The notes under the pieces are model-generated. The model was not told the origin of the DNA. It was given only the letters and a program-made list of their open reading frames with translations, and searched no databases. A stretch of DNA of 57,499 bases from a virus (taxonomy: Duplodnaviria > Heunggongvirae > Uroviricota > Caudoviricetes), in the IMG/VR virus record IMGVR_UViG_2541047758_000011; one strand, written 5' to 3'. Position numbers and translations under genes: made by a program. Of this stretch, positions 686 to 56,131 are shown one piece after another. Each line of letters opens with the position of its first letter. Position 1 is the first letter of the stretch.

Positions 686-686
686 A

Positions 687-6487: not shown

Positions 6488-6495
6488 GGTGAGCC

Positions 6496-6937: not shown

Positions 6938-7094
6938 CAGAACAACAAAGCTGCCTGATAGTGGCCTTTATTTTTGGCATAAATAACAGAATAAACACTG
7001 CACTGTGTATTCATTCCAACGAGTGAATACACGGAGCAATGTCGCTCGTAACTAAACAGGAGCCGACTTGTTCTGATTATTGGAAATCTTCTTC

Positions 7095-7120
7095 GCCCTC
7101 CAGTGTGAGGGCGATTTTTT
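7095..7120 (+). terminator. Rho-independent terminator (gccctccagtgtgagggc + T-run), preceded by a 9-bp perfect inverted repeat at 7005-7032
   Basis: Hairpin plus gatttttt; whole ~125-bp block is repeated at 49441-49562. Confidence 0.65.
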
Positions 7121-7140
7121 ATCTATGAGGATATGAATAG

Positions 7141-7509
7141 ATGTCAAACATCAAAAAATACATCATTGATTACGACTGGAAAGCATCAATAGAAATTGAA
7201 ATCGACCATGACGTAATGACAGAGGAAAAACTTCACCAGATTAATAATTTCTGGTCAGACTCTGAATACCGACTCAATAAACACGGCTCTGTATTAAATG
7301 CTGTATTAATCATGCTGGCGCAACATGCTCTGCTTATAGCAATTTCAAGCGACTTAAATGCATATGGTGTTGTGTGTGAGTTCGACTGGAATGATGGAAA
7401 TGGTCAGGAAGGATGGCCTCCAATGGATGGTAGCGAAGGAATAAGAATTACCGATATCGATACATCAGGAATATTTGATTCAGATGATATGACTATCAAA
7501 GCCGCCTGA
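7141..7509 (+). CDS. ea10: Ea10-like early protein (122 aa)
   Basis: Sits between ral and cIII as lambda ea10 does and has the same length (122 aa). Confidence 0.7.
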   Translation: MSNIKKYIIDYDWKASIEIEIDHDVMTEEKLHQINNFWSDSEYRLNKHGSVLNAVLIMLAQHALLIAISSDLNAYGVVCEFDWNDGNGQEGWPPMDGSEGIRITDIDTSGIFDSDDMTIKAA

Positions 7510-7581
7510 GCGCGGCGTTACCGCATACCAATAACGCTTCACTCGAGGCGTTTTTCGTTATGTATAAATAAGGAGCACACC

Positions 7582-7746
7582 ATGCAATATGCCATTGCAG
7601 GGTGGCCTGTTGCTGGCTGCCCTTCCGAATCTTTACTTGAACGAATCACCCGTAAATTACGTGACGGATGGAAACGCCTTATCGACATACTTAATCAGCC
7701 AGGAGTCCCAAAAAATGGATCAAACACTTATGGCTATCCAGACTAA
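7582..7746 (+). CDS. cIII: CIII protein (FtsH inhibitor)
   Basis: [54 protein letters not shown] recalled as lambda cIII. Confidence 0.9.
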   Translation: MQYAIAGWPVAGCPSESLLERITRKLRDGWKRLIDILNQPGVPKNGSNTYGYPD

Positions 7747-7858
7747 ATTCACTATCGCCACTTTTATTGGCGATGAAAAGATGTTTCGTGAGGCCGTCGA
7801 CGCTTATAAAAAATGGATATTAATACTGAAACTGAGATCAAGCAAAAGCATTCACTAA
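7715..7858 (+). CDS. kil: Kil protein (FtsZ inhibitor)
   Basis: [47 protein letters not shown] recalled as lambda Kil; overlaps cIII 3' end. Confidence 0.85.
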
Positions 7859-8229
7859 CCCCCTTTCCTGTTTTCCTAATCAGCCCGGCATTTCGCGGGC
7901 GATATTTTCACAGCTATTTCAGGAGTTCAGCCATGAACGCTTATTACATTCAGGATCGTCTTGAGGCTCAGAGCTGGACGCGTCACTACCAGCAGATCGC
8001 CCGTGAAGAGAAAGAGGCAGAACTGGCAGACGACATGGAAAAAGGCCTGCCCCAGCACCTGTTTGAATCGCTATGCATCGATCATTTGCAACGCCACGGG
8101 GTCAGCAAAAAAGCCATTACCCGTGCGTTCGATGACGATGTTGAGTTTCAGGAGCGCATGGCAGAACACATCCGGTACATGGTTGAAACCATTGCTCACC
8201 ACCAGGTTGATATTGATTCAGAGGTATAA
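7813..8229 (+). CDS. gam: Gam (RecBCD inhibitor)
   Basis: 138 aa [55 protein letters not shown]... lambda Gam. Confidence 0.93.
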
Positions 8230-8234
8230 AACGG

Positions 8235-9020
8235 ATGAGTACAGCACTCGCAACGCTGGCTGGGAAGCTGGCTGAACGTGTCGGCATGGATTCTGTCGAC
8301 CCACAGGAACTGATCACCACTCTTCGCCAGACGGCATTTAAAGGTGATGCCAGCGATGCGCAGTTCATCGCATTGTTGATCGTCGCCAACCAGTACGGCC
8401 TTAATCCGTGGACGAAAGAAATTTACGCCTTCCCTGACAAGCAGAACGGCATCGTTCCGGTGGTGGGCGTTGATGGCTGGTCCCGCATCATCAATGAAAA
8501 CCAGCAGTTTGATGGCATGGACTTTGAGCAGGACAATGAATCCTGCACATGCCGGATTTACCGCAAAGACCGCAATCATCCGATCTGCGTTACCGAGTGG
8601 ATGGATGAATGCCGCCGCGAACCATTCAAAACCCGCGAAGGCAGAGAAATCACGGGGCCGTGGCAGTCGCATCCCAAACGGATGTTACGGCATAAAGCCA
8701 TGATTCAGTGTGCCCGTCTCGCCTTCGGATTTGCTGGTATCTATGACAAGGATGAAGCCGAGCGCATTGTCGAAAATACCGCATACACTGCAGAACGTCA
8801 GCCGGAACGCGACATCACTCCGGTTAACGATGAAACCATGCAGGAGATTAACACTCTGCTGATTGCCCTGGATAAAACATGGGATGACGACTTATTGCCG
8901 CTCTGTTCCCAGATATTTCGCCGCGACATTCGCGCATCGTCAGAACTGACACAGGCCGAAGCAGTGAAAGCTCTTGGATTCCTGAAACAGAAAGCCACTG
9001 AGCAGAAGGTGGCAGCATGA
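8235..9020 (+). CDS. bet: Bet (Red-beta ssDNA annealing protein)
   Basis: 261 aa [59 protein letters not shown]... lambda Bet. Confidence 0.95.
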
Positions 9021-9697
9021 CACCGGACATTATACTGCAGCGTACCGGGATCGACGTGAGAGCTGTCGAACAGGGGGATGATGCATGGCACAAATTACGG
9101 CTCGGCGTCATCACCGCTTCAGAAGTTCACAACGTGATAGCAAAGCCCCGATCAGGAAAGAAGTGGCCTGACATGAAAATGTCCTACTTCCACACCCTGC
9201 TGGCTGAGGTTTGCACCGGTGTGGCTCCGGAAGTTAACGCTAAAGCGCTGGCCTGGGGAAAACAGTACGAGAACGACGCCAGAACCCTGTTTGAGTTCAC
9301 TTCCGGCGTAAATGTTATTGAATCCCCGATCATCTATCGCGACGAAAGTATGCGCACCGCCTGCTCTCCCGATGGTTTATGCAGTGACGGCAATGGCCTT
9401 GAGCTGAAATGCCCGTTTACCTCCCGGGATTTCATGAAGTTCCGGCTCGGTGGTTTCGAGGCCATAAAGTCGGCTTACATGGCCCAGGTGCAGTACAGCA
9501 TGTGGGTGACGCGAAAAGATGCCTGGTACTTTGCCAACTATGACCCGCGTATGAAGCGTGAAGGCCTGCATTATGTCGTGGTTGAGCGGGATGAAAAGTA
9601 CATGGCGAGTTTTGACGAGATGGTGCCGGAGTTCATCGAAAAAATGGACGAGGCACTGGCTGAAATTGGTTTTGCATTTGGGGAGCAATGGCGATGA
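9017..9697 (+). CDS. exo: Lambda exonuclease (Red-alpha)
   Basis: 226 aa [65 protein letters not shown]... lambda Exo. Confidence 0.95.
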
Positions 9698-9855
9698 AGC
9701 ATCCTCACGATAATATCCGGGTAGGCACGATCACTTTCGTCTACTCCGTTACAAAGCGAGGCTGGGTATTTCCCGGCCTTTCTGTTATCCGAAATCCCCT
9801 GAAAGCACAGCGGCTGGCTGAGGAGATAAATAATAAACGGGGGCTGTATGACTGA
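9694..9855 (+). CDS. Small hypothetical protein (53 aa) overlapping exo stop
   Basis: ATG at 9694; [31 protein letters not shown]...; not in ORF track. Confidence 0.35.
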
Positions 9856-10405
9856 TTTCACCGGAAGCAATACTCCTGCCGAACATCGCGACAGCTGGCG
9901 CACACCACCAGAGATTTTTGCTGCGCTTAATGCAGAGTTCGTTTTTCAACTTGATGCTGCCGCCAGCGAAAAAAACCGACTATGTCGGCTTTTTATCTCA
10001 CAGGAGCAGAACACATTAACCACTTCATGGCCTGAAGCAATGGGATATGCCTCTGGTTATGTCTGGTTGAATCCACCATACAGCAATATTTCCCCTTTTG
10101 TGAAAAAGGCAGCCACTGAAAACAAATTCAGTAGTGTGGGATGTGTAATGTTATTGCCTGCTGACACATCTGTCGGATGGTTTCATGAAGCGATACAAAC
10201 CGCCAGTGAGGTCAGATTCATCACGGCAGGACGACTGGCATTTATTAACCCACTCACTGAGAAACCCGTCAGTGGAAATAATAAAGGCTCGATGCTCATT
10301 ATCTGGCACCCATACCCCCGTACACACTGCCACTTTACGACCGTTGATCGTGGAGAGTTGATGGCGTTCGGCTCAAGGATTCTTGCCCGTCGGGAGGCTG
10401 CATGA
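9848..10405 (+). CDS. Phage N6-adenine DNA methyltransferase (Dam-like, NPPY motif)
   Basis: 185 aa with ...YVWLNPPYSNISPF... motif IV typical of N6-adenine MTases; no adjacent restriction endonuclease seen. Confidence 0.75.
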   Translation: MTDFTGSNTPAEHRDSWRTPPEIFAALNAEFVFQLDAAASEKNRLCRLFISQEQNTLTTSWPEAMGYASGYVWLNPPYSNISPFVKKAATENKFSSVGCVMLLPADTSVGWFHEAIQTASEVRFITAGRLAFINPLTEKPVSGNNKGSMLIIWHPYPRTHCHFTTVDRGELMAFGSRILARREAA

Positions 10406-10481
10406 CAACCACGGAATGCATTTTTCTGGCAGCGGGCTTCATATTCTGTGTGCTTATGCTTGCCGACATGGGACTTGTTCA

Positions 10482-10697
10482 ATGACACCTCAGCAGGAAA
10501 ACGCCCTTCGCAGCATTGCCCGTCAGGCTAATTCTGAAATCAAAAAAGCCAGACAGCAGTTTCCGGATAAAAACGTCGATGACATTTGCCGTAGCGTACT
10601 AAAGAAGCACCGCGAAACGGTAACGCTGATGGGATTCACACCGACTCATTTAAGCCTGGCGATCGGCATGTTAAACGGCGTCTTTAAGGAACGGTGA
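10482..10697 (+). CDS. Hypothetical protein (71 aa)
   Basis: ORF from ATG 10482 (MTPQQENALRSIARQANSEIKKARQQ...). Confidence 0.45.
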   Translation: MTPQQENALRSIARQANSEIKKARQQFPDKNVDDICRSVLKKHRETVTLMGFTPTHLSLAIGMLNGVFKER

Positions 10698-10795
10698 ACA
10701 TGAAAAGCAAAATCATCAGGGAGCTACAGGCTCCTTTTTTATTGTTCGCATTCATCCTCAAGCGTATTAACCAACAATTCAGGGATTAATGGAAG

Positions 10796-11014
10796 ATGGC
10801 AGACATCATTGATTCAGCATCAGAAATCGAAGAATTACAGCGCAATACAGCAATAAAAATGCGTCGTCTGAACCACCAGGCTATATCTGCCACTCATTGT
10901 TGTAAGTGTGGCGATCCCATAGATGAACGAAGACGCCTGGCCGTTCAGGGTTGTCGGACTTGTGCAAGTTGCCAGGAGGAGATCGAACTTAAGAACAAAC
11001 AATGGGGATTGTGA
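10796..11014 (+). CDS. TraR/DksA-family C4 zinc-finger protein
   Basis: 72 aa with CxxC...CxxC (HCCKCGDPIDERRRLAVQGCRTCASCQ) typical of DksA/TraR fold. Confidence 0.7.
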   Translation: MADIIDSASEIEELQRNTAIKMRRLNHQAISATHCCKCGDPIDERRRLAVQGCRTCASCQEEIELKNKQWGL

Positions 11015-11061
11015 TGGCCTCAAAGCAGCAAATTTCAACATCGTCCAACTGAGGTGTAAAA

Positions 11062-11340
11062 ATGTTCAGAATCATTTTTCCTAACACCTGGTACGTCGAC
11101 CACCACGGCACTCCCTGCAAAATCCTGCGTTCTACCCACAACAAAGTTCACTACATCCGAAAAGGCAGAACATGTATCGCCAGCATGTTCCGCTTTAATC
11201 ATGACTTTGAACCTGTGAATAAAGCTGATGCAGATCGGATAGCAGAAGAGATCGAAACGGCAGAACACATTAAGAAGTTACGTGACATGCGTTCAAAAAG
11301 CAGAGGTAACCATGGAATCATACAGCCTCACACTCGATGA
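11062..11340 (+). CDS. Hypothetical protein (92 aa)
   Basis: ORF upstream of xis; no recognised motif. Confidence 0.4.
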   Translation: MFRIIFPNTWYVDHHGTPCKILRSTHNKVHYIRKGRTCIASMFRFNHDFEPVNKADADRIAEEIETAEHIKKLRDMRSKSRGNHGIIQPHTR

Positions 11341-11662
11341 GGCCTGTCAGTTTCTTAAGATATCCAGACCAACCGCCACCAACTGGATACGAACAGGCCG
11401 CCTACAGGCAACACGCAAAGACCCCACTAAACCAAAATCTCCTTACCTCACAACGCGACAAGCCTGCATTGCGGCGCTTCAGTCTCCGCTGCATACTATC
11501 AAGGTGAGCGCGGGTGATGGCATAACAGAGGAAAGAAAATGTCACTCTTCCGCAGAAGTGAAATATGGTACGCCAGTTTCACATTGCCGAACGGTAAAAG
11601 ATTTAAACAGTCTCTTGGAACAAAGGACAAAAGGCAGGCGACAGAGCTCCATGACAAGCTAA
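11312..11662 (+). CDS. xis: Excisionase-like protein (Xis), overlapping int start by 124 nt
   Basis: [45 protein letters not shown]... HTH directly upstream of int; ORF stays open into int. Confidence 0.55.
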
Positions 11663-12702
11663 AGGCTGAAGCATGGCGGGTCAGCAAACTTGGTGAAATA
11701 CCTGATATGACGTTCGAGGAGGCGTGTATCAGGTGGCTCGAAGAGAAAGCACATAAAAAATCACTGGACGATGACAAAAGCCGGATCGGATTCTGGCTTC
11801 AACATTTCGCAGGAATGCAACTAAGAGACATTACTGAATCAAAAATTTATTCAGCAATGCAGAAAATGACGAACCGGCGTCATGAGGAAAACTGGAAACT
11901 CAGGGCAGAAGCATGCAGAAAAAAAGGGAAACCTGTTCCAGAATACACGCCAAAACCAGCGTCCGTTGCAACGAAGGCTACGCATCTTTCATTTATAAAG
12001 GCCCTACTAAGAGCCGCAGAGCGTGAATGGAAAATGCTGGATAAGGCACCAATTATTAAAGTGCCTCAACCAAAGAATAAACGGATCCGCTGGCTGGAGC
12101 CCCATGAAGCACAAAGGCTGATTGATGAATGTCCGGAGCCATTAAAGTCTGTTGTTGAATTTGCACTGGCAACAGGTTTAAGACGCTCGAACATCATCAA
12201 CCTTGAATGGCAACAAATAGATATGCAGCGCCGGGTGGCATGGATAAACCCGGAAGAGAGTAAATCAAACCGCGCAATCGGCGTTGCGCTGAATGATACT
12301 GCATGTCGCGTTTTGAAAAAACAAATCGGGAATCATCACCGTTGGGTATTTGTGTACAAGGAAAGCTGTACCAAACCAGACGGAACGAAAGCGCCAACAG
12401 TAAGGAAGATGCGGTATGACGCAAACACAGCCTGGAAAGCGGCGCTGAGACGAGCTGGTATTGATGATTTCAGATTTCACGACTTGAGACACACCTGGGC
12501 AAGTTGGCTGGTTCAAGCCGGAGTCCCGTTGTCAGTGTTACAGGAAATGGGTGGCTGGGAGTCTATCGAAATGGTTCGTCGATATGCTCACCTCGCGCCT
12601 AATCACCTTACCGAACACGCACGGCAAATAGACTCGATTCTGAACCCATCGGTCCCAAATTTGTCCCAGTCAAAAAATAAGGAAGGTACTAATGATGTGT
12701 AA
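11539..12702 (+). CDS. int: Tyrosine integrase (prophage A)
   Basis: 387 aa with C-terminal catalytic region ...[42 protein letters not shown]; stop 14 bp before tRNA 3' fragment. Confidence 0.9.
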
Positions 12703-12762
12703 CTTATTGATTTAAATGGTGCCGATAATAGGAGTCGAACCTACGACCTTCGCATTACGAAT
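12699..12762. repeat. 64-bp att core direct repeat (copy 1), identical to 56038-56101; includes 46-nt 3' fragment of tRNA-Thr (12717-12762)
   Basis: gtaacttattgatttaaatggtgccgataataggagtcgaacctacgaccttcgcattacgaat is present at both positions by direct comparison. Confidence 0.9.
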
Positions 12763-33819: not shown

Positions 33820-35235
33820 TCAACCTACACCACAAGGAATTGAGTAACTGGAATAGTCGGGTTGCGCAGCCGACTCCGGGCAATGCATACACATCATCAG
33901 CGCATCAGCCAGGTTAGGAGATGGAATACCGAGCTTCTGCTTCATTTCGACCTTAGTCATAAGCTCCAGCTTCCCGTTGTTATTGAATTTGCGCTGAATC
34001 TGCGTCAGTTCTGCAAACAGCTTCTCCAGCATCTTCTCGCCTATCGCTTCTTTGTCGAAACTCAGCATGTCGTCGGGGTCTGCATACTCACCGTGAACAA
34101 CCGCCCGATATGTCAGATACAGCCTGTCAGCCAGCGCGTAATAGAATTGCGCTCGCTTATTGCGGAATACATCGCCAATAGTGCGAACGTTGTCGCCCTG
34201 TACGACTTCATCAGCCCATGCTCCGGCCTGATAAGGCGCATCTTCATCGAATGGCGATTCGCTGCCCTTGAACATCGTGGCGGTGATTTTCTTACCGGAG
34301 AATGCTTCCGTTGTCTGTCTGCGTAGCCCGGCACCAACACCATCACCATCCCACAGGTAATGGTCAGCACCGTCTTCAATCGCCAGCGAAGTAGCCCAGT
34401 CAGCCCCCTCGTTGATATCCATCAGCAGACCTTCGGCAATGCGCTTAACTACCGAACCGTGGCGCGATGCATAACCTTTAGCATCCGGTCCTGTATCTGA
34501 TGGGTCATGTGCAGAGACAACCGCGCCCTTCGCTTTCCATCCGAGTTTCTTGTGCGCATCGGTTGCGGCTTCAAGCCATTCTCGCTTGATGATTGCCATA
34601 TCACTTGCGCTCACTGGCTCACCAAGCCAGATGTGACGATACAGTGTCGGGTTTCTGCGTTTACACTCTTCCATCTCCAGACGGAGAACTTCAGGAAAGT
34701 GCGGGTTGTCGGTGTAGTTCACCGTCAGCAGACAAATATCATCGGGAGGGTTTACTACGAATCGCTGATAGGTATCGTCGAGGATGTTTTTCGGGTTGAA
34801 GCTCACCCATATTTCGGAAAATGGCTTGCGGATGGTTGGGATCAGGATATCCCATGATTCCTTCGTTACCGCTTCCGCTTCTTCCACCCAGCAGATATCA
34901 ATACCTTCGAGCGATTTAATCTTCGTCGGGTTGTTTTTGATGCCGTAGAACATGAATTCAGCATTCGTTCCGAGATGACGAATCATTGAACGCTGAATTT
35001 CAAACTCAGCTGAATACCCTTCACGCTCGATGGTATCTTCAAGCAGCCGGATTACCGAATCACTGATACTGTTTTGCAGTTCACGAGCACAGAGGATGCG
35101 CACCGGCTGCCGACGCGCCGCTTCAACAAGCAGCCTCGCAATTGCCCATGATTTACCGCTACCTCGACCGCCTTTGGCGACTTTGTAGCGATGCGCCTCA
35201 ATGAACGGTTCAAAGATAGGATTAATCGAGGTCAT
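33820..35235 (-). CDS. Terminase large subunit
   Basis: N-terminal Walker A (KGGRGSGKSW) ATPase plus nuclease domain; directly upstream of portal. Confidence 0.88.
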   Translation of the reverse strand: MTSINPIFEPFIEAHRYKVAKGGRGSGKSWAIARLLVEAARRQPVRILCARELQNSISDSVIRLLEDTIEREGYSAEFEIQRSMIRHLGTNAEFMFYGIKNNPTKIKSLEGIDICWVEEAEAVTKESWDILIPTIRKPFSEIWVSFNPKNILDDTYQRFVVNPPDDICLLTVNYTDNPHFPEVLRLEMEECKRRNPTLYRHIWLGEPVSASDMAIIKREWLEAATDAHKKLGWKAKGAVVSAHDPSDTGPDAKGYASRHGSVVKRIAEGLLMDINEGADWATSLAIEDGADHYLWDGDGVGAGLRRQTTEAFSGKKITATMFKGSESPFDEDAPYQAGAWADEVVQGDNVRTIGDVFRNKRAQFYYALADRLYLTYRAVVHGEYADPDDMLSFDKEAIGEKMLEKLFAELTQIQRKFNNNGKLELMTKVEMKQKLGIPSPNLADALMMCMHCPESAAQPDYSSYSIPCGVG

Positions 35236-38522: not shown

Positions 38523-38598
38523 TGGTGCTGGTTAACGGACTTGAACCGCTACCCATTCGCTTACAAGACGACTGCTCTACCATTAGAGCTAAACCAGC
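38523..38598 (-). tRNA. Phage tRNA-like gene, anticodon read as UGU (Thr); one mismatch in anticodon stem
   Basis: Manual fold: 7-bp acceptor stem (GCTGGTT/AACCAGC), D-arm GCTC/GAGC, T-loop TTCAAGT, discriminator A + CCA; anticodon loop CTTGTAA. Confidence 0.5.
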
Positions 38599-38603
38599 AT
38601 GTT

Positions 38604-38678
38604 TGGCGGGACAGCGTGGACTCGAACCACGATAAGAAGGTTAACAGCCTTCCGTAATGACCTTTATACGACTGACCC
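38604..38678 (-). tRNA. Phage tRNA-like gene, anticodon read as GUU (Asn); atypical D-arm
   Basis: Manual fold: T-arm CGTGG-TTCGAGT-CCACG, anticodon stem GAAGG/CCTTC with loop CTGTTAA, 3' ...GCCA; acceptor 6/7 pairs, D-stem 3/4. Confidence 0.45.
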
Positions 38679-45556: not shown

Positions 45557-46417
45557 TCACCTGTCGAAAAACACGTAGCCAGTTTTCGATACGGTGATTG
45601 CGGATGATGGTTTGGATTGTGGTTGAATGGTTTCTGGCTTCTCGTCGTTCCAGCGCTGACCGTTCAGGTAGCTCGATGGTAATAACCTGTCGAATCCGAA
45701 CTGCTTACCATTCCTGCATGCGATGTCTTCTGCCAGCATCGTGGCAAACTCTCTTGCCGTACCCCTGGTAGTTTTACGCCATTCCCTGAACTGTGTTCTG
45801 AATGCCGAAGCTGCGTTTTTCTTCCCGGCTTTCCGCATGCCTGCACACCAGAATATTTCCTCGAATGCCTTGTCGGTTTCTTCGTGACGCTCATGTGATT
45901 TTTCACACTCCGTCCGAACACTTTCGGACATAGTGTTTTTATTATTTCTTTTTTCTTTTGTAATAGTTTCTTTTGTGTGTCCCTGTTTTGGTGACAGCGC
46001 TGTCACCGTTTTGGTGACACTTTTTGTCACCAATGCAGTGACATTATCACCAGAGTAGTGACACCCTTCGATTTGCCATTCCTCGATGTTCTTGTTAGGA
46101 CCGATTTGCTGGCCTTCGCGAAGGATAACCTTCATCGCGATAAGCTCATTCTTGGCCTTGTTTACCTTCTGTCTTGGCAGCCTGGTAATTTGAGCTAACT
46201 GACTATCAGAGATGCGATCCATCTTTTTACCGTAGCCGTATGTTTTACGGCATATGGCGTGGGCAACCTTGCTCTGATTTTTCGTTAAATCTGCGCCGAT
46301 AAGCTCTTCATACAGGGCATTTGCAAGACGGGTATAACCATCTTCAACTTCTGCCACACGACGCTCCACAGGCCGTTGTGAAGGCCTTAAATGTGTTACG
46401 GTTGCAAGATTACTCAT
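45557..46417 (-). CDS. Replication initiator, O-like N-terminal domain
   Basis: ..[57 protein letters not shown].. parallels lambda O N-domain; contains iterons. Confidence 0.8.
45985..46066. repeat. Origin iterons (GGTGACA/TGTCACC repeats, about six copies) inside the O-like gene
   Basis: ggtgacagcgctgtcaccgttttggtgacactttttgtcaccaatgcagtgacattatcaccagagtagtgacacc. Confidence 0.75.
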
Positions 46418-46556
46418 GACCTTTCTCCTTCTGCATCAGCTTCACTTTTTCCAACTCAGCCCGGAATCGACCAGGCTGCTTGAAGCTGGACAGGAAGCGA
46501 TCACGTAGTATGTGTTTGTGAATTTTGTCCTGGTAAGGACTGAGTTGTTTTGTCAT
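46410..46556 (-). CDS. Small hypothetical protein (48 aa) between cII-like and O-like genes
   Basis: Manual [51 protein letters not shown]. Confidence 0.3.
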
Positions 46557-46588
46557 AATGACTCCTGTGGATTGATCCAGTAATTCCC

Positions 46589-46885
46589 TCAGAATTGCAT
46601 ATCAATTTGCTTAAAATCCTCGGTGGCGGCCGGGGATTTTTTCTTTGTGATTTCATCAAGCGCATACTTAAAAGCCCTGCTAATCGGACTGATGTCTGAT
46701 GCCATTCCGAAAGCACACAAGACCGAAGCAATAAATCTCCAGTCCGTTCTGCTTATCTTCGATTCATGACAGCCAATCATCTTTGCCAGACCGCGCTGGG
46801 TAAGCGTGGACAGGTTGATGAGTAAATCAGTTTCAGCGCGATCAATTTCTCGCTGTGTTGGCTTGCTGTAGCTTGCTTGTGCCAT
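46589..46885 (-). CDS. CII-like transcriptional activator
   Basis: 98 aa ending ..[18 protein letters not shown], parallel to lambda CII C-terminus; downstream of cro. Confidence 0.75.
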
Positions 46886-47266: not shown

Positions 47267-47917
47267 ATGAATACACAACTGATGGGTGAGCGTATTCGCG
47301 CTCGCAGAAAAGAACTCAAGATTAGGCAGGCTTCCCTTGGCAAGATGGTTGGCGTGTCTAATGTTGCTATTTCCCAATGGGAGCGATCTGAAACTGAGCC
47401 CAATGGCGAAAACCTATTGGCCTTAGCCAAGGCTTTGCAGTGCTCCCCTGATTACCTGTTGAAAGGAGAGGATAGTCTTTCAAACATTGCCTATCACAGC
47501 AGGCATGATCCAAGAGGTTCGTATCCTCTAATTAGTTGGGTAAGCGCAGGATGTTGGATGGAAGCTGTAGAGCCATATCATAGGCGTGCAATAGATAACT
47601 GGTACGACACAACGGTAGATTGTTCTGAAGACTCTTTTTGGCTCGACGTTAAAGGCGACTCAATGACTGCCCCGGCAGGACTGAGTATTCCTGAGGGGAT
47701 GATTATTCTCGTCGACCCAGAAGTCGAACCACGTAATGGAAAGCTGGTAGTCGCCAAACTTGAAGGAGAAAACGAGGCGACATTCAAAAAGTTAGTTATT
47801 GATGCCGGTAGAAAATTCCTGAAACCACTCAATCCACAATACCCAATGATTGAAATCAATGGGAACTGTAAAATCATTGGCGTTGTCGTTGATGCCAAGC
47901 TAGCAAACCTTCCTTAA
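47267..47917 (+). CDS. c2: C2 repressor (P22-type, S24 autopeptidase)
   Basis: 216 aa MNTQLMGERIRARRKELKIRQASLGKMVGVSNVAISQWERSETEPNGENLLAL... with GDSM Ser and Lys dyad. Confidence 0.92.
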   Translation: MNTQLMGERIRARRKELKIRQASLGKMVGVSNVAISQWERSETEPNGENLLALAKALQCSPDYLLKGEDSLSNIAYHSRHDPRGSYPLISWVSAGCWMEAVEPYHRRAIDNWYDTTVDCSEDSFWLDVKGDSMTAPAGLSIPEGMIILVDPEVEPRNGKLVVAKLEGENEATFKKLVIDAGRKFLKPLNPQYPMIEINGNCKIIGVVVDAKLANLP

Positions 47918-47938
47918 GGGGCTTTCGCCCCTTTTTTA
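47917..47938 (+). terminator. Rho-independent terminator after c2
   Basis: aaggggctttcgcccctt + T-run. Confidence 0.7.
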
Positions 47939-47989
47939 TTTCCCGTTAAAAATCAAAGACAAACTAAATTCACGTCCATAAAATTAAGT

Positions 47990-48045
47990 TTTCTTCAAAA
48001 ATGCACTTGACCAATAAATTAAGAAGTCTTAAATTTAAGCCATCA
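47990..48045 (+). promoter_or_regulatory. pL/OL region (TTGACC -35, operator-like ttaagaagtcttaaatt)
   Basis: cacttgaccaataaattaagaagtcttaaatttaag upstream of nut-like hairpin. Confidence 0.55.
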
Positions 48046-48084
48046 GCAGGACGCTGGAAGCCAAACGGAACAGATTGGCAGGCT

Positions 48085-48125
48085 CTTTAACATCGACGGA
48101 CTCTCAACCTAACCGTTGAGACCAG
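48085..48125 (+). promoter_or_regulatory. nutL-like site (boxA-like ctctttaa, boxB-like hairpin ctcaacctaaccgttgag)
   Basis: Short hairpin preceded by boxA-like motif upstream of N-like gene. Confidence 0.45.
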
Positions 48126-48231
48126 AACTTGAGTGGTTTTGGGGATGGCGCGAATTGCAGCTGCAAGACAGCGATCGAGAAGATAAGCACCTCGACGCGT
48201 CATGCGCCAAAGCCACTTAAAGGAGACCATC

Positions 48232-48537
48232 ATGGTAACCATTGTCTGGAAAGAATCCAAAGGTACGGCAAAAAGCCGCTACAAAGCTCGCAGAGCAGAA
48301 CTTATTGCCGAGCGACGCAGTAATGAAGCACTGGCGCGAAAAATTGCGCTAAAGCTCTCTGGTTGCGTCAGAGCAGACAAAGCAGCATCACTAGGAAGCC
48401 TTTGCTGCAAGAAGAAAGAAGAAGTCGTTCGAAAAAATAGAAGTATTTATTACAAAGATTCAAACCCATTAGGAAACAAAATACATGCAGTCCAAAAAAT
48501 AAAATTGTACAGTAAACTACCGTACGGTGCTTATTGA
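48232..48537 (+). CDS. N-like antitermination protein with arginine-rich motif (P22 gp24 analogue)
   Basis: N-terminal ..KSRYKARRAELIAERR.. ARM; first gene after pL/nut; start chosen at ATG 48232 after AAGGAG. Confidence 0.55.
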   Translation: MVTIVWKESKGTAKSRYKARRAELIAERRSNEALARKIALKLSGCVRADKAASLGSLCCKKKEEVVRKNRSIYYKDSNPLGNKIHAVQKIKLYSKLPYGAY

Positions 48538-48878
48538 GTATGCTTATGGTGAAAAAGACTATTTATGTTAATCCTGACCGCGGACAAAACAGAAAAGTAT
48601 CTGATAGAGGTCTTACATCTCGAGACAGGAGGAGAATAGCGAGATGGGAAAAAAGGATAGCATATGCATTAAAAAACGGTGTAACACCTGGATTTAATGC
48701 TATAGATGACGGTCCTGAATATAAGATTAATGAAGAACCAATGGACAAAGTTGACAAAGCATTAGCAACACCATTTCCTCGCGATGTCGAAAAAATTGAA
48801 GATGAAAAATATGAGGATGTAATGCACAGAGTTGTTAATCACGCTCACCAACGAAATCCAAATAAAAAATGGTCATAG
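48534..48878 (+). CDS. Hypothetical early protein (114 aa)
   Basis: ORF overlapping N-like stop; followed by terminator. Confidence 0.5.
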   Translation: MSMLMVKKTIYVNPDRGQNRKVSDRGLTSRDRRRIARWEKRIAYALKNGVTPGFNAIDDGPEYKINEEPMDKVDKALATPFPRDVEKIEDEKYEDVMHRVVNHAHQRNPNKKWS

Positions 48879-48899
48879 CCCACTTCGGTGGGTTTTTTA
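48878..48899 (+). terminator. Rho-independent terminator (cccacttcggtggg + T7)
   Basis: Seen directly. Confidence 0.75.
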
Positions 48900-48930
48900 T
48901 TGTCTGAACAAACCTAATTTACTACCGCAA

Positions 48931-49007
48931 GCCACGCAGTGAAATGGGTGTGACTTGTGTTGGTCGCCAGAAGCAACGCGGAAAATCAATTCCAGCTTAT
49001 TACGATT
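48931..49007 (+). pseudogene. Remnant of a lambda-type N gene 3' end (homologous to 6411-6487 of prophage A)
   Basis: ...MGVTCVGRQKQRGKSIPAYYD* with no N-terminal part; flanking DNA also matches prophage A. Confidence 0.6.
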
Positions 49008-49102
49008 GAGGTGAGCCATGCTCAAGAAAGTCAAACGCCGACTTTACAACAAGGCTGCCTGACGGTGGCATTTATTTTTGGCATAAACAACATGGGGTAA
49101 AA

Positions 49103-49429
49103 ATGAAAGTTTTAATGGTTTATGAAAATGTTCCAGAGTCGACTGAAATCTATATTTTTGATGCCAATGAAGATGAAGTTAACGATTTGAAATTGTCTCA
49201 CGGCAATTACACAAATGCTAATTGTGATGAAAGTATCGAAAAAGCACTATCACGTGTTCTTGTCAGAATTAGTGATCCAGAACATTGTGATGATGATTGG
49301 CTTTCTTATTGTGGAGCGGTAAAAACTGATGCAGGAAAATGGAGTAAAAGTAAAGTTGATAACTCAACTCCAATCATTATGAAAGATAGCGATATTGAAA
49401 TGGTAATAATAACCGGAATGATTATGTAG
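49103..49429 (+). CDS. Hypothetical protein (108 aa)
   Basis: ORF in AT-rich segment. Confidence 0.45.
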   Translation: MKVLMVYENVPESTEIYIFDANEDEVNDLKLSHGNYTNANCDESIEKALSRVLVRISDPEHCDDDWLSYCGAVKTDAGKWSKSKVDNSTPIIMKDSDIEMVIITGMIM

Positions 49430-49534
49430 GCTGCGAATAAGCACTGTGTATTCATTCCAACGAGTGAATACACGGAGCAATGTCGCTCGTAACTAAACAG
49501 GAGCCGACTTGTTCTGATTATTGGAAATCTTCTT

Positions 49535-49562
49535 TGCCCTCCAGTGTGAGGGCAATTTTTTT
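49535..49562 (+). terminator. Rho-independent terminator (gccctccagtgtgagggc + T-run), second copy of the 7095-7120 element, preceded by the same 9-bp inverted repeat
   Basis: Near-identical to prophage A block 6996-7120. Confidence 0.65.
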
Positions 49563-49574
49563 GACGGAGGATAT

Positions 49575-49886
49575 ATGAAATTACGTGTCTGGCATATCCC
49601 GCAAGTACCTATGAAGCCGTTCATTGTAGAAGTGGCAAGTGTTGAAGAGGGTGTTCGCCTGATGGATGCACTGGCTGATTATGATGCCTTTCAGTATGAC
49701 AACAACATCAAGCCTGACTACTGCAATGCTAACGGCCTTGAGATGTGGGATGAGAGCCTTACTGATGAAGATTTATCAGAGATGGGGCTTACGGATCGCT
49801 GGGTAGATTGGTACAGCGAATGCCAATGTTACGACGACCCACGTAAATATATCGAAAGCCTGAAAGAAGAAACCTCAGCAGCCTGA
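49575..49886 (+). CDS. Hypothetical early protein (103 aa), ea10-position analogue
   Basis: ATG after GGAGG; MKLRVWHIPQVPMKPFIVEVASVEEGVRLMDALADYDAF... Confidence 0.55.
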   Translation: MKLRVWHIPQVPMKPFIVEVASVEEGVRLMDALADYDAFQYDNNIKPDYCNANGLEMWDESLTDEDLSEMGLTDRWVDWYSECQCYDDPRKYIESLKEETSAA

Positions 49887-49921
49887 GCGCGGATTTGACG
49901 CATACAAATTAAGGAGGATAT

Positions 49922-50890
49922 ATGAGTGAAGTAACAGATTTAGTTGTTATTGAAAAAGCAAATGCAATGACTGTATTTCAGTCTGCCGACCAGATTGAAG
50001 AAATTCTCCAAAAGGTTGAACGTGAAGTTATGTCCTTTGTGCCTGATATCACAACGGCAAAGGGCAGAAAGGAGATCGCTTCTCTGGCGTATAAAGTTGC
50101 GCAGACGAAAACATATCTCGATGGTCTTGGCAAAGACCTTGTTGCTGAACTGAAGGAAATTCCAAAGCTAATTGATGCCAACCGCAAGACAGTGCGTGAT
50201 CGACTTGATGAGCTGAAAGCCAAGGCACGCCAGCCTCTTACTGATTATGAGGATGAACAGGCACGGATTAAAGCCGAAGAAGAAGCTAAGGCAGCAGCTG
50301 AAGCTCTCGCAAAGCAAATTGAGTCTGACCATGAAATAGCGATTTTGATGGATCGCGAATTTGACCGCCAAAGAGAAGAGGCAAGACTCAAAGCGGAGCA
50401 GGAAAAGCGAGAGCATGAAGAACGCTTAAAAAGAGAAGCTGAAGAGAAAGCCAGAGCAGAAGCCGAAGCAAAGGCAAAAGCAGAAATTGAAGCAGCAGCA
50501 AGACGAGAAGCAGAGGCTAAGGCCGCAGCGGAACGTGCAGAGCGTGAACGCATTGAAGCCGAGCAACGAGCACAGCGCGAAGCAAAAGAGGCAGCAGAAC
50601 GAGCTGAAAAAGAAAAGCAGGCAGCAATTGAAGCAGAACGCAGAAAAGCACAGGAGGAGGCTGAGCGAATCCGTCGCGAGGCTGAAGCAAAAGAGCAAGC
50701 CAGAATCGCAGAAGAAAAAAGAATCAAGGACGAAGAAGAGCACAGAGCAAAGGATAAAGCTCACCGGAAAGAAGTAAATAACAAAATACTTGCTGACCTT
50801 ATCAAGGTTGGCGCATCAGAAGATGTTGCTAAAAATATCATAACAGCCATCGTAAAAGGCGAAGTATTCGCAACAAAAATAACCTACTAA
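49922..50890 (+). CDS. Hypothetical protein with long E/K/A/R-rich charged helical region (322 aa)
   Basis: Residues ~120-270 are almost entirely E, A, K, R (..EAEEKARAEAEAKAKAEIEAAARREAEAKAAAERAERERIEAEQRAQREAKEAAERAEKEK..). Confidence 0.6.
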   Translation: MSEVTDLVVIEKANAMTVFQSADQIEEILQKVEREVMSFVPDITTAKGRKEIASLAYKVAQTKTYLDGLGKDLVAELKEIPKLIDANRKTVRDRLDELKAKARQPLTDYEDEQARIKAEEEAKAAAEALAKQIESDHEIAILMDREFDRQREEARLKAEQEKREHEERLKREAEEKARAEAEAKAKAEIEAAARREAEAKAAAERAERERIEAEQRAQREAKEAAERAEKEKQAAIEAERRKAQEEAERIRREAEAKEQARIAEEKRIKDEEEHRAKDKAHRKEVNNKILADLIKVGASEDVAKNIITAIVKGEVFATKITY

Positions 50891-50914
50891 TAAAACCAAC
50901 ATAAGGAACCACCC

Positions 50915-51061
50915 ATGATTTACGCAATCGCGGGAGGCGCTCGCATGGGTGCCTTCCAATTAAATGAATCTTTACTTGAACGAATCACCCGTAAATTACG
51001 TGACGGATGGAAACGACTCATCGACGTACTTAATCAGCCAGGAGTTCCAAAAAATGGATAA
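50915..51061 (+). CDS. CIII-like protein (48 aa)
   Basis: [48 protein letters not shown], parallel to lambda cIII core. Confidence 0.7.
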   Translation: MIYAIAGGARMGAFQLNESLLERITRKLRDGWKRLIDVLNQPGVPKNG

Positions 51062-51167
51062 AACACTTATGGCTATTCAGACTAAATTCACTATCGCCAC
51101 TTTTATTGGCGATGAAAAGATGTTTCGTGAGGCCGTCGAAGCCTACAGAAAATGGAGGTCTAAATGA
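51054..51167 (+). CDS. Kil-like protein (37 aa)
   Basis: [37 protein letters not shown], parallel to lambda Kil N-terminus. Confidence 0.6.
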   Translation: MDKTLMAIQTKFTIATFIGDEKMFREAVEAYRKWRSK

Positions 51168-51352
51168 TTCCGGTAGAGCTGGCGAAAACTCCAGAGTTAA
51201 GTCGATTAAAAAGAGAATATCACATTGCTGAGGCTCGTTACTGGCGTAAAGCGGGAGATAAATCAAAGAAACAACTTTGTTTATGGCAAGCACAAAGAGA
51301 GCGCATGAATGAGCGCGAATTTCTTTCCTCCCCATCCGAATTACCATTCTGA
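51164..51352 (+). CDS. Hypothetical protein (62 aa)
   Basis: ORF. Confidence 0.4.
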   Translation: MIPVELAKTPELSRLKREYHIAEARYWRKAGDKSKKQLCLWQAQRERMNEREFLSSPSELPF

Positions 51353-51360
51353 GGTGAATT

Positions 51361-52068
51361 ATGGATTTGAATAAATTCGATGAGCCATTCAGCCCTGAAG
51401 ATATCGAATGGCGAATACAGCAAAGCGGTAAAACACGCGATGGCAAGGTGTGGGCTATGGTGCTGGCTTATGTCACGAACCGGGCAATCATGAAACGCCT
51501 GGACGATGTTTGCGGCAAAGCAGGATGGCGCAATGAATACCGCGATATTCCCAACAACGGCGGCGTTGAATGCGGCATATCAATAAAGATTGATTCCGAA
51601 TGGGTAACCAAATGGGATGCTGCTGAAAACACGCAGGTAGAAGCCGTCAAAGGTGGTCGTTCCGGTGCAATGAAGCGCGCTGCCGTTCAGTGGGGAATCG
51701 GTCGGTATCTGTATAACCTTGAGGAAGGTTTCGCACAAACATCTCTCGATAAAAAGCAGGGGTGGCACAGGGCAAAACTGAAGGATGGAACAGGATTTTA
51801 CTGGCTCCCTCCATCGCTTCCGGGATGGGCAATCCCAGCATCAGATAACAAACCATCACCAGAAAATATCAACCAGAAATCTCCATCGGTTGACTGCGAA
51901 CAAATCCTGAAAGACTTCAGCGATTATGCGTCAACAGAAACTGACAAGAAAAAACTCATCGAGCGTTATCAGCATGACTGGCAATTAATGGCTGGCAATG
52001 AGGATGCGCAGGCTAAATGCGTTCAGGTAATGAACATCAGAGTTAACGAACTAAAACAGGCGGCATAA
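51361..52068 (+). CDS. erf: Erf-like ssDNA annealing protein (divergent N-domain, P22 Erf-like C-terminus)
   Basis: C-terminal ..DFSDYASTETDKKKLIERYQHDWQLMAGNEDAQAKCVQVMNIRVNELKQAA matches P22 Erf C-terminus; N-part (..AAVQWGIGRYLY..) Rad52-like, differs from P22 Erf. Confidence 0.75.
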   Translation: MDLNKFDEPFSPEDIEWRIQQSGKTRDGKVWAMVLAYVTNRAIMKRLDDVCGKAGWRNEYRDIPNNGGVECGISIKIDSEWVTKWDAAENTQVEAVKGGRSGAMKRAAVQWGIGRYLYNLEEGFAQTSLDKKQGWHRAKLKDGTGFYWLPPSLPGWAIPASDNKPSPENINQKSPSVDCEQILKDFSDYASTETDKKKLIERYQHDWQLMAGNEDAQAKCVQVMNIRVNELKQAA

Positions 52069-54222: not shown

Positions 54223-54567
54223 ATGTCAGATTTGGCTATGAAGGTTTTGAAATGGCAATCAACTGGCGATGTCGGCATCAGTAGCGCAACTCTTGCCTCA
54301 ATCGCATGTGGACTGAAAAAGAATATCTATGGTCATCACTTCGGCGCTCCCCATGACGTAGCAGACTTTCGGCGATGCGTTGCACTTGTTGAGCAGATTC
54401 CAGAAATCAGAGATTCATTCGACAAGGTTGCAAAGCGCGTTCCGGCATTCAAAGGAATCCTCAACGAATGGGATTCACTCGTTGCTCTGTTGAAGTCTGA
54501 AATGAAGATACACGGAAACAAAGCACCAGAGACTTACAGAAGAATCAGCGAGCTACGCAAGGACTAA
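54223..54567 (+). CDS. Hypothetical protein (114 aa)
   Basis: ORF upstream of xis. Confidence 0.5.
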   Translation: MSDLAMKVLKWQSTGDVGISSATLASIACGLKKNIYGHHFGAPHDVADFRRCVALVEQIPEIRDSFDKVAKRVPAFKGILNEWDSLVALLKSEMKIHGNKAPETYRRISELRKD

Positions 54568-54656
54568 CCACAGCCTCACACTCGATGAGGCCTGTTCATT
54601 TCTCAAGATATCCAGACCTACCGCAATAATACCAACTCAATAAATGGAGATTCCAA

Positions 54657-55004
54657 GTGGAAGAAGAAATCTTCACTCGTGAAGAGGCAGCATCGTATCT
54701 GAAGGTAGACAAAGGCACTATCACGCAGTGGATACGAAGTGGACGACTTCAGGCCGCAAAGATAAATCCAGATAAACCTAAAAGCCCATATCGCATTTGC
54801 AAGTCAGACTGCATTGCGGCGCTTAAGTCTGTAAGACACAATAGCGCGGTGAATGCGGTTGATGTGCAGGAGGTTAAAGCATGTCAATCAAACTACGCGG
54901 TGGCACGTGGCACTGTGATTTCGTCGCGCCAGATGGATCAAGAGTTAGACGCTCTCTTGAAACATCGGACAAAAGGCAAGCGCAAGAACTTCACGATCGT
55001 CTGA
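54657..55004 (+). CDS. xis: Excisionase-like protein (Xis), GTG start, overlapping int by 124 nt
   Basis: ..EEIFTREEAASYLKVDKGTITQWIRSGRLQAAKINPDKPKSPYRICKSDCIAAL.. same architecture as prophage A xis. Confidence 0.55.
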   Translation: MEEEIFTREEAASYLKVDKGTITQWIRSGRLQAAKINPDKPKSPYRICKSDCIAALKSVRHNSAVNAVDVQEVKACQSNYAVARGTVISSRQMDQELDALLKHRTKGKRKNFTIV

Positions 55005-56041
55005 AAGCAGAAGCGTGGAGAGTAAAAAATCTCGGGGAATCACCGAAAAAGCTATTCAAGGAAGCCTGCATACGGTGGCTTCGTGAGAAATCGGATAAGA
55101 AGTCCATTGATGATGACAAGAGCATTATATCGTTCTGGATGTTGCACTTCAGAGAAACCATTCTCTCAGACATAACAACAGAAAAAATAATGGAGGCGGT
55201 AGACGGGATGGAAAACCGCCGCCATCGCCTGAACTGGGAAATGAGCCGGGACAGGTGTTTGCGGCTTGGCAAGCCAGTGCCGGAGTATAAACCAAAGCTG
55301 GCAAGCAAAGGAACGAAGACGCGGCATCTGGCAATACTTCGCGCTATTCTCAATATGGCTGTTGAATGGGGATGGCTTGACAGGGCGCCCAAAATATCAA
55401 CACCACGCGTTAAGAATGGACGAATCAGATGGCTTACAGAGGAGGAATCGAAGCGCCTGTTTGCAGAAATTGCTCCTCATTTCTTCCCTGTGGTCATGTT
55501 TGCAATCACGACAGGCCTTCGCCGTTCCAACGTTACAGACCTTGAGTGGTCACAGGTCGATCTGGATAAGAAAATGGCATGGATGCACCCTGATGAAACA
55601 AAAGCTGGCAATGCGATCGGAGTTCCTCTTAACGAAACCGCATGCCAGATATTAAGAAAACAGCAGGGTCTCCATAAGAGATGGGTGTTTGTCCACACCA
55701 AACCTGCCTACCGAAGCGACGGAACAAAAACAGCAGCGGTAAGGAAGATGAGAACCGACAGCAACAAGGCATGGAAGGGAGCGTTAAAGCGGGCAGGCAT
55801 TAGCAACTTCCGCTTCCATGACCTGAGGCATACTTGGGCAAGCTGGCTGGTTCAGTCCGGTGTCTCTCTTCTTGCACTTAAAGAGATGGGAGGATGGGAA
55901 ACTCTAGAAATGGTTCAAAGATACGCCCACCTTTCAGCCGGGCATCTCACCGAGCACGCGAGCAAAATCGATGCGATTATAAGTCGCAATGGCACAAATA
56001 CGGCACAAGAGGAGAACGTGGTTTACTTAAATGCGAGGTAA
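54881..56041 (+). CDS. int: Tyrosine integrase (prophage B)
   Basis: 386 aa, C-terminal ..[42 protein letters not shown]; stop 14 bp before tRNA-Thr 3' end. Confidence 0.9.
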   Translation: MSIKLRGGTWHCDFVAPDGSRVRRSLETSDKRQAQELHDRLKAEAWRVKNLGESPKKLFKEACIRWLREKSDKKSIDDDKSIISFWMLHFRETILSDITTEKIMEAVDGMENRRHRLNWEMSRDRCLRLGKPVPEYKPKLASKGTKTRHLAILRAILNMAVEWGWLDRAPKISTPRVKNGRIRWLTEEESKRLFAEIAPHFFPVVMFAITTGLRRSNVTDLEWSQVDLDKKMAWMHPDETKAGNAIGVPLNETACQILRKQQGLHKRWVFVHTKPAYRSDGTKTAAVRKMRTDSNKAWKGALKRAGISNFRFHDLRHTWASWLVQSGVSLLALKEMGGWETLEMVQRYAHLSAGHLTEHASKIDAIISRNGTNTAQEENVVYLNAR

Positions 56042-56101
56042 CTTATTGATTTAAATGGTGCCGATAATAGGAGTCGAACCTACGACCTTCGCATTACGAA
56101 T
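56038..56101. repeat. 64-bp att core direct repeat (copy 2), spanning int stop, spacer and 3' 46 nt of tRNA-Thr
   Basis: Identical to 12699-12762 by direct comparison. Confidence 0.9.
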
Positions 56102-56131
56102 GCGCTGCTCTACCAACTGAGCTATATCGGC
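56056..56131 (-). tRNA. thrW: tRNA-Thr (anticodon CGU)
   Basis: Reverse complement GCCGATATAGCTCAGTTGGTAGAGCAGCGCATTCGTAATGCGAAGGTCGTAGGTTCGACTCCTATTATCGGCACCA folds as canonical cloverleaf; matches E. coli thrW from memory. Confidence 0.9.

Follow-up and report, generated by a model that had tools for sequence, protein, structure and literature searches.

Islands of near-identity in two tandem lambdoid prophages are very probably pieces of the common lambdoid pool, among them the small RNA gene preS and a displaced N 3' end

Lambdoid phage genomes are mosaics in which islands of more than 90% identity stand in a background of about 50%, synteny is kept, islands fall at module boundaries and annealases of both the Red and the Erf type occur (Martinsohn, Radman & Petit 2008, PMC2327257; De Paepe et al. 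2014, PMC3945230). Three further described systems bear on the present case. Passages of a recent preprint (bioRxiv 10.1101/2024.10.31.621285) locate the lambda small RNA (sRNA) LPR1, or PreS, in the ea10-ral interval, ending 3' at the terminator tL2a, and describe an Hfq-dependent sRNA of ~88 nt, processed to ~68 nt, that activates translation of host dnaN and represses alaS, lowers phage yield two- to four-fold when deleted, and is conserved in more than 2,500 genomes in a survey at ≥92% identity. The nun gene of phage HK022 is known from genetics and structure (Oberto et al. 1989, cited in PMC6256539; structure 6ALG, PMC5386594), and the cIII-kil pair from lambda itself. Here we compare these systems with a window of 57,499 nucleotides, the whole stretch of DNA analysed (IMG/VR record IMGVR_UViG_2541047758_000011), which holds a tandem of two equally oriented lambdoid prophages, A and B, at the thrW tRNA gene, and which contains short blocks that the two prophages share.

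Prophages A (1-12762, running on beyond the left window edge) and B (12763-56037) were compared by BLASTN of window positions 1-12762 against 12763-57499, with ungapped displays for the edges. Four islands that an earlier reading, made from the letters alone (the sequence-only reading), had pointed out were recovered: island 1, A 6401-6527 = B 48923-49049 (127 bp, 94.5% identity, E 3e-51; placed by that reading at 6411-6531 and 48931-49050); island 2, A 7000-7120 = B 49441-49561 (121 bp, 98.3%, E 3e-56; 6996-7120 and 49441-49562); island 3, A 7627-7817 = B 50966-51156 (191 bp, 94.8%, E 8e-82; 7640-7800 and 50960-51130); and island 4, A 11322-11376 = B 54570-54624 (56 alignment columns, 92.9%, E 3e-16; 11320-11380 and 54570-54630). 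The blocks thus exist as described, neither much shorter nor far less similar, with similarity far above chance and coordinates that agree to about 10-25 bp. Identity is 92.9-98.3% inside them and at background outside, as in the lambdoid mosaics described before.

Nothing links these blocks to DNA exchange between A and B themselves. The N, preS, cIII-kil and xis islands (islands 1 to 4) are widespread, occurring in 99, 325, 266 and 116 phage records, respectively; only 10 records span at least 80% of island 1. The copies in B have closer relatives elsewhere for three of the four islands (the N stub, preS and cIII-kil, which are those compared): the preS block is 100% identical to those of Huey and mEp234, the cIII-kil allele is 100% identical to that of CurroJimenez_Bas106, and the N stub is 97.2% identical to N7. 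On the other side of the comparison, A 6401-6698 is 97.7% identical to mEpX1, closer than to B, and no A-B island is identical except the attachment-site (att) repeat. In this comparison the A and B alleles are not each other's closest relatives. We are highly confident that the islands are ordinary lambdoid mosaicism, pieces drawn independently from the phage pool, and that they record no exchange between A and B. The main value of the analysis is this correction: short identical islands in co-resident prophages are not evidence of mutual DNA exchange. All islands here are elements found across the lambdoid population, two of the four being working genes.

BLASTN returned five more A-B islands, together with a 64-bp att repeat. 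A linker island (A 6942-6988 = B 49046-49092; 47 bp, 89%) adjoins island 1 directly in B, corresponds also to lambda 34057-34103 (the 3' end of ral and sequence downstream) and contains a terminator-like hairpin (49054-49069) followed by a T-run. The others lie inside the O-type replication genes (2870-2915 = 45945-45990; 46 bp, 95.7%), in what is probably the origin region of the O-type initiator genes by position relative to lambda; at 3325-3430 = 46546-46650 (80%); in the N leader (6072-6124 = 48148-48200, 85%); and at the 3' end of int (12469-12525 = 55808-55864, 79%). Every match is plus/plus, which makes the islands direct repeats, spaced 42.4-43.3 kb apart, and the longest perfect runs are 85, 94, 62 and 64 bp. 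Island flanks (100 bp, global alignment) have identities of 0.46-0.54, compared with 0.49 ± 0.03 for random A/B pairs, so the island edges are abrupt. No shoulder of intermediate identity was found at the five A-B islands tested, where no flank exceeded the 95th percentile of the background by more than 0.01; in the published mosaics, by contrast, about one third to one half had at least one shoulder (PMC2327257, PMC3945230). The absence of shoulders is compatible with illegitimate joints or with repeated rounds of exchange. Most islands here (47-191 bp) also lie under the 200-bp cut-off of the 2008 study (PMC2327257).

The islands sit at lambdoid module boundaries, and in B the N 3' stub and the xis stub are true relics of past joints. 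The claim that the islands record past exchange between lambdoid modules is therefore upheld for these boundaries and relics, and fails for the other two supposed scars, which are working genes. We propose that conserved elements would serve as fixed anchors in the early-left operon, that variable cargo cassettes would be swapped between the anchors, and that a few dead gene stubs would be left at places where such a swap ran into a gene. In both prophages, preS and cIII-kil are live elements under selection.

Island 2, which had been described as an inverted-repeat-plus-terminator block and taken for a scar, corresponds to the known sRNA gene preS/LPR1 with its terminator tL2a. The copy in B (49441-49561, plus strand) is 99.2% identical to lambda 33925-34045, nearly the entire ral-ea10 intergenic region, and the copy in A is 98-99% identical to it. 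In B the block comprises a first hairpin, which we call HP1 (49446-49473), the PreS body from about 49474, and the tL2a stem (49534-49555) followed by TTTTTTT; a GC-rich stem and a U-tract at the 3' end, the features of a Rho-independent terminator, are thus both present, and tL2a is annotated at the matching site in phage O276. The second preS/tL2a copy, in A (7000-7120, plus strand), lies between ral (6758-6937) and ea10 (7141-7509), and the flanking open reading frames (ORFs) match Pfam Ral and DUF2528 (ea10). The likeness to the lambda locus thus consists of the same ral-ea10 location for the copy in A, the 99.2% identity, and the GC-rich stem with its U-tract. From this likeness, island 2 reads as the preS gene, a working element and not a scar, presumably expressed in this strain; the lysogen has two copies of this replication-boosting sRNA gene. 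An Rfam 15 scan of 47900-51500 gave no match at E ≤ 1 among 4227 families, PreS included.

The preS block is at least 95% identical in its 325 phage records, a partial match of 80-90% is found in 60 more, mostly Salmonella P22-like, and no identities between 90% and 95% were seen in the phage collection. We extracted 119 preS instances from IMG/VR and fetched loci by means of the invariant core GAGCAATRTCGCTCGTAAC; they have ~25 different left and ~21 different right contexts. The preS block is a fixed anchor between swappable cargo. Prophage B is a case in point and differs in this from the lambda locus: instead of ral and ea10, its preS neighbours are a 108-aa ORF upstream and a P22 gp17-type superinfection-exclusion gene downstream. 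The 108-aa ORF (49103-49429, plus strand), which follows the linker and is missing from A, belongs to PHROG 4658 (function unknown, E 2.4e-38) and has no Pfam or PADLOC match. The gp17-type gene 3' of preS lies at 49578-49886 (Pfam GP17, E 4e-55). Beyond it, a 322-aa ORF (49922-50890), rich in Glu, Lys and Ala and probably a coiled coil, belongs to PHROG 1376 (function unknown), with nothing found for it in Pfam or PADLOC.

The preS block gives a stable RNA fold, with a z-score of -5.2; an internal PreS helix, AACAGG/CUUGUU, is 99.5% paired over 33 distinct sequences, with a double change from A-U to G-C in 11, and RNAalifold recovers this helix independently. Compensatory changes of this kind in the preS helices point to selection at the RNA level. 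HP1 (B 49446-49473; A 7005-7032), just 5' of the presumed PreS start, occurs with at least five unrelated stem sequences, each of which forms a hairpin of 9-14 bp (loci L002, L008, L009, L113, L127 and others), and these types combine freely with either of two forms of the PreS body, here called E-type and S-type. RNAalifold on the MAFFT alignment did not recover HP1, whose stem variants are out of register there, and its support therefore comes from single-sequence folds. In HK022/O276 an IS903 is inserted in the 5' arm of HP1.

The S-type PreS body, found in Salmonella P22-like phages and IMG/VR contigs (L007, L008, L009, L123, L127), has compensatory changes in the AACAGG/CUUGUU helix, a 13-nt insertion that adds a small hairpin, and another terminator stem; its identity is under the ≥92% of the preprint's conservation survey. 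The cited passages of the preprint make no mention of the hairpin to which the conserved block extends 5' of the ~88-nt PreS (10.1101/2024.10.31.621285). That the conserved block around preS is larger and older than the published sRNA is a tentative suggestion, for which we put the chances at somewhat below even. HP1 could be a structure-only element that either defines the PreS 5' end or protects the upstream mRNA after a cleavage that releases PreS. If this reading is true, the PreS family would reach past the ≥92% set to members that differ in their single-stranded regions and possibly in their host targets. The structure-conserved, sequence-variable HP1 and the diverged Salmonella-phage PreS variants are loose ends for the specialist.

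Other identities for parts of the block were considered and set aside. A small ORF in it (MSLVTKQEPTCSDYWK..., 49480-49578) is not taken as coding, since its ATG is ATA in Salmonella-phage variants and the frame is not kept. The core has a boxA-like sequence (CGCTCGTAA, compared with CGCTCTTAA) followed by a hairpin, which suggested a nut-like site; phages of different N specificities share the block, and the sequence lies inside the PreS region. For HP1, we favour an RNA hairpin over a palindromic protein-binding site, in view of a G.U wobble in the stem on the pL-sense strand and because one and the same HP1 type is found in phages that differ in immunity region and N type.

Island 3 had likewise been listed as a recombination scar and consists of live, intact genes in both prophages. 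In B (50966-51156, plus strand) it covers the core and 3' part of cIII (coding sequence, CDS, 50915-51061) and most of kil (CDS 51054-51167), and in A (7627-7817, plus strand) cIII (7582-7746) and the start of kil; both genes are intact ORFs in A and B. Matches to Pfam Lambda_CIII (E 1.9e-24, 85.9 bits against a cutoff of 25.7) and Lambda_Kil (E 8.4e-22, 76.8 bits against 27.6) are full-length, and the overlapping gene pair and its position are those of lambda. CIII is an inhibitor of FtsH and Kil an inhibitor of FtsZ. B departs from lambda in the N-terminus of CIII, the island beginning inside the gene, and in the recombination module downstream, which is Erf-type and not Red-type. The A-B identity of 94.8% falls in the fullest band of the island's phage records (90-95%, 152 records).

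The two working genes bear on the best surviving alternative, that the islands are dedicated linkers in the sense of Susskind and Botstein, conserved chiefly as homology for module exchange and not for a function of their own. Such linkers would explain the many left and right contexts of preS with their recurrent sharp boundaries, the bimodal distribution of preS identities (at least 95%, or partial at 80-90%) and the recurrence of module edges at the same base in many phages. We nevertheless regard this as unlikely: the two best-conserved islands have known functions (PreS, whose deletion lowers phage yield according to the cited passages, and CIII with Kil), the compensatory substitutions in the preS helices speak for selection on RNA, and the remaining two islands are gene fragments that are far rarer at full length, as the 10 records spanning at least 80% of island 1 illustrate.

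The first of these fragments, island 1 in B, had been read as a headless 3' fragment of a lambda-type N gene. Headless it is: in the start-less N 3' remnant (48907-49012, plus strand), which reads in frame from 48917 as IYYRKPRSEMGVTCVGRQKQRGKSIPAYYD* with its stop at 49010-49012, there is an in-frame TGA upstream and no ATG, GTG or TTG, and about 31 C-terminal codons are left. It is not of lambda type, being of the phage-21/N7 type with an Sf6/N7-type tail. Upstream of it, the segment holding pL, nutL and the 5' part of N (48000-48427, plus strand) is 98.6% identical to phage 21 (OL657228; locus L004, 1151-1578), and the nutL boxA (48082-48089) and boxB (48102-48121) are identical to the annotated phage 21 sites. 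The match to phage 21 N leaves at L004 position 1578 and returns at 1585, so that only 6 nt of phage 21 are missing, and the second match covers B 48907-48972. Against the uninterrupted N gene of N7 the breakpoints are the same (294, 301), and the downstream part is 97.2% identical through 49049. The fragment in B is headless because a 479-bp HK022-type nun cassette sits inside a phage-21/N7-type N gene, between codons 65/66 and 67/68.

This cassette (48420-48895, plus strand; 97.1% to HK022/O276) consists of an N-like 3' end, promoter hexamers, the nun CDS (48540-48878) and a hairpin with a T-run (48877-48900), and the HK022 region that it matches begins immediately beyond putL and takes in the annotated nun promoter, nun and the terminator. 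By sequence, the promoter hexamers (-35 ATGCAG at 48485-48490, -10 TACAGT at 48508-48513) are identical to those of the O276 annotation. ORF 48540-48878 encodes Nun: 107 of the 109 residues of PDB 6ALG chain N are matched (E 8e-71; PHROG 5632, E 8.5e-71), and the protein is full-length, with a match to the arginine-rich motif (ARM) peptide 1HJI_B and a C-terminal end ...NPNKKWS in which KKW is present.

Upstream of nun, B has a full-length but chimeric N antiterminator gene (48232-48537, plus strand; 101 aa). Residues 1-65 are of phage-21 type and the C-terminal 36 aa, with the tail ...EEVVRKNRSIYYKDSNPLGNKIHAVQKIKLYSKLPYGAY, come from the nun cassette. The product matches PHROG 271, 'anti-termination protein N-like' (E 4.6e-31, residues 1-99), and is below the cutoff for Pfam N_peptide (18.4 vs 27.9 bits); its C-terminal 42 aa are 66-77% identical by tblastn to the C-termini of annotated N or gene-24 proteins of ES18, BTP1, L and ST64T. 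An ARM, a central region and a C-terminal RNA polymerase-binding region thus lie in one ORF 3' of a cognate nutL, as the sequence of an N antiterminator should have them. We read the N of B as a full-length chimera, with the ARM and central region of phage 21 and an ES18/L-type C-terminal domain, and the headless fragment as the original C-terminal coding end, apparently displaced by the nun cassette. The N frame reads into the cassette and there meets a homologous replacement C-terminal domain, so that N stays full length, while the original N 3' end is left start-less 3' of nun; in A this DNA still serves as the working N 3' end. The architecture shows how an essential regulator can take up an exclusion gene without being destroyed, the cassette bringing its own copy of the displaced N part.

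Comparison with the parent systems makes the difference plain. The nun coding sequence, annotated promoter hexamers and terminator of B are 97% identical to those of HK022 (Oberto et al. 1989, cited in PMC6256539; 6ALG, PMC5386594). In HK022 and HK75 the cassette directly follows putL, there is no N gene, and the N-like 36 codons upstream of nun are headless; in B, mEpX1 and mEp235, by contrast, these 36 codons continue the frame of a phage-21-type N, and downstream of nun comes a second N 3' end. B resembles phage 21 in its nutL boxA and boxB and N codons 1-65 (98.6%) and N7 in its stub (97.2%), whereas the N genes of phage 21 and N7 are uninterrupted and that of B is split by the nun cassette and has an ES18/L-type C-terminal domain. 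The N-nun-stub arrangement is also found in mEpX1 (100% over 48400-48930), mEp235, Kapi1, PDP110P1, PA28 and a set of Stx1a phages, and the whole module of B (48040-49049) is 98.8% identical to mEpX1. We found nun in only 30 phage records, and outside the N-nun-stub group these are HK022, HK75 and O276, a laboratory hybrid. The left joint has an 8-bp overlap, AGAAGTCG, followed by ~73% identity, and lies inside the sole ~34 bp where the N-like end of the cassette and phage 21 N can be aligned. Identity in the nun region falls to 91.6% in PA28 and its Stx1a relatives, where the CDS annotated as 'Nun-like' has 45 aa (PA28 locus L006, 1891-2028); in these phages nun may be in decay although the N-cassette-stub architecture is kept.

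The live counterpart in A is mosaic as well. There island 1 comprises the last 29 codons of N, which ends at 6487, and 40 bp downstream. Lambda homology ends at 6411 and returns at 6663, so that within an N-ral region of lambda type the stretch 6412-6662 is a non-lambda patch; Sf6, N7 and phi458 also match the first part of the patch. The N tails differ accordingly, lambda ending in ...GRQKIKGKSIPLI and both A and the fragment in B in ...GRQKQRGKSIPAYYD. It is this patch of the Sf6/N7/mEpX1/phi458 kind, with lambda homology ending at 6411, that takes the fragment out of the lambda type. Downstream of N, ~720 bp of lambda (35103-34382) are replaced in A by the 252-bp patch (within 6129-6662); the lambda segment presumably carries sieB. 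A third combination, a lambda 5' part with a phage-21 3' end, is seen in the N of mEp043. Given these varied combinations in A and mEp043, the N 3' end is a recurrent crossover zone.

Island 4, previously called a fragment of the xis 5' end, proved to be an internal piece without a start codon. In A (11322-11376, plus strand) it covers codons ~4-22 of a live P22-type xis (ATG at ~11312, CDS ending at 11662). In B (54570-54624, plus strand) it lies between ORF 54223-54567 and the prophage's own xis (54657-55004), which is of SfX/mEp043 type (Pfam HTH_17, E 1.4e-8); the fragment has 18 codons only, with a stop shortly after, and is thus not a complete HTH_17-type ORF. The description as a relic of a past joint fits, with the start and the rest of the gene missing, and the '5' end' is more exactly internal codons ~4-22. 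The stub and the end of the upstream ORF are common to mEp213 (99.5%), HK022, 434 and HK97, and all have the same right edge, at ~54622-54624. The int-xis modules of these phages probably differ; if they do, the stub is an old scar at the int-xis module exchange point. In B it is an internal fragment of a P22-type xis, probably marking the joint with an SfX-type xis-int module.

Some points weigh against this account of independent mosaicism and its details. An ancient A-B exchange followed by divergence is formally possible, if unnecessary. The right junction of the nun cassette (48896-48908) has no clear homology and no clear donor. As to the direction and mechanism of the cassette event, which we infer, the sequence is compatible both with insertion into N and with a cassette that the lineages of phage 21 and N7 lost by recombination between the two N 3' copies, and it does not decide between them. 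Among 5,426 complete E. coli genomes none matched 48000-49700 over its full length, the best covering 92%. Finally, the PreS 5' ends near 49474 (B) and 7033 (A) are placed by counting 88 nt back from the U-tract, from the published length only.

A recent event, in which recombination or gene conversion between the co-resident tandem prophages made or homogenised the islands in situ, is very improbable. The prophages do lie side by side in the same orientation, their islands contain perfect runs of 62-94 bp, and A has Red-type genes (bet, exo) and B an Erf-type annealase. The island identities, however, are 92.9-98.3% and not 100%, and closer or identical alleles of B occur in unrelated phages for three of the four islands. 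The N 3' patch of A is nearer to mEpX1 than to B, the sole stretch of island 1 that is perfect between A and B (85 bp) is equally perfect in N7 and Sf6 in the multi-phage alignment, and the whole N-nun-stub module of B is shared with mEpX1 at 98.8%. An artefact or chance, be it assembly collapse or chimerism of similar prophages or random matching, can practically be dismissed: tandem similar prophages are a known assembly hazard, but E values run from 3e-16 to 8e-82 in a comparison of 12.7 by 44.7 kb, single-nucleotide differences separate the A and B copies, and the arrangements recur in independent finished genomes (phi458 for A, 99.1%; mEpX1, mEp235 and mEp043 for B). Ordinary mosaicism from the phage pool is what we retain, and all elements involved are of known kinds: lambdoid mosaicism, PreS/tL2a, Nun, N, CIII, Kil and Xis.

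The islands may still matter for what the two prophages do in future. For lambda Red, published assays record recombination in a prophage region with a mean identity of 88% and no perfect run longer than 49 bp (PMC3945230), and also between sequences 12-22% diverged (PMC2327257); by these published measurements it is reasonable to regard perfect direct repeats of 62-94 bp as adequate substrates for Red, Erf or RecA. The two genomes being collinear and the islands direct repeats, homologous recombination at any island would remove 42-43 kb, and the tandem pair could thereby collapse into a single hybrid prophage.

A second possible interaction concerns Nun. A has exact lambda nutL and nutR boxB sequences (6030-6044, plus strand; 3742-3756, minus strand) and a lambda-type N ARM, and B has its own nutL and N ARM of phage-21 type beside an HK022-type nun with intact promoter hexamers. 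Given these nut sites and ARMs, B Nun is predicted to arrest the early transcription of A and not that of B. If nun is expressed from the prophage in this strain, it may thus arrest transcription at nutL and nutR of A and keep its neighbour from lytic growth; this predicted antagonism is another matter for specialists.

The setting is simple. An intact tRNA-Thr(CGT) gene lies at 56056-56131 on the minus strand, and a partial copy of the thrW 3' end forms the att repeat (12699-12762 = 56038-56101; 64 bp, 100% by BLASTN). An integrase gene precedes each att copy (A 11539-12702, B 54881-56041); the two integrases, SfI-like and SfX/mEp043-like, are 55% identical and use the same thrW site, which gives the tandem arrangement. 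A has a lambda-like early region and is closest to phi458, and the early-left region of B is made of pieces known from mEp043, mEpX1, mEp235, N7 and HK75. Recombination genes are Red-type bet and exo in A and an Erf-type annealase in B. Directly 3' of the cI-type repressor of A (4034-4768) lies a 348-aa ORF (4794-5840, plus strand), at the position where lambda has rexAB; it has no match in Pfam or PADLOC, and a role in exclusion or defence is conceivable. Genes for tRNA-Thr(TGT) and tRNA-Asn(GTT) lie within prophage B itself, at 38523-38678 on the minus strand.

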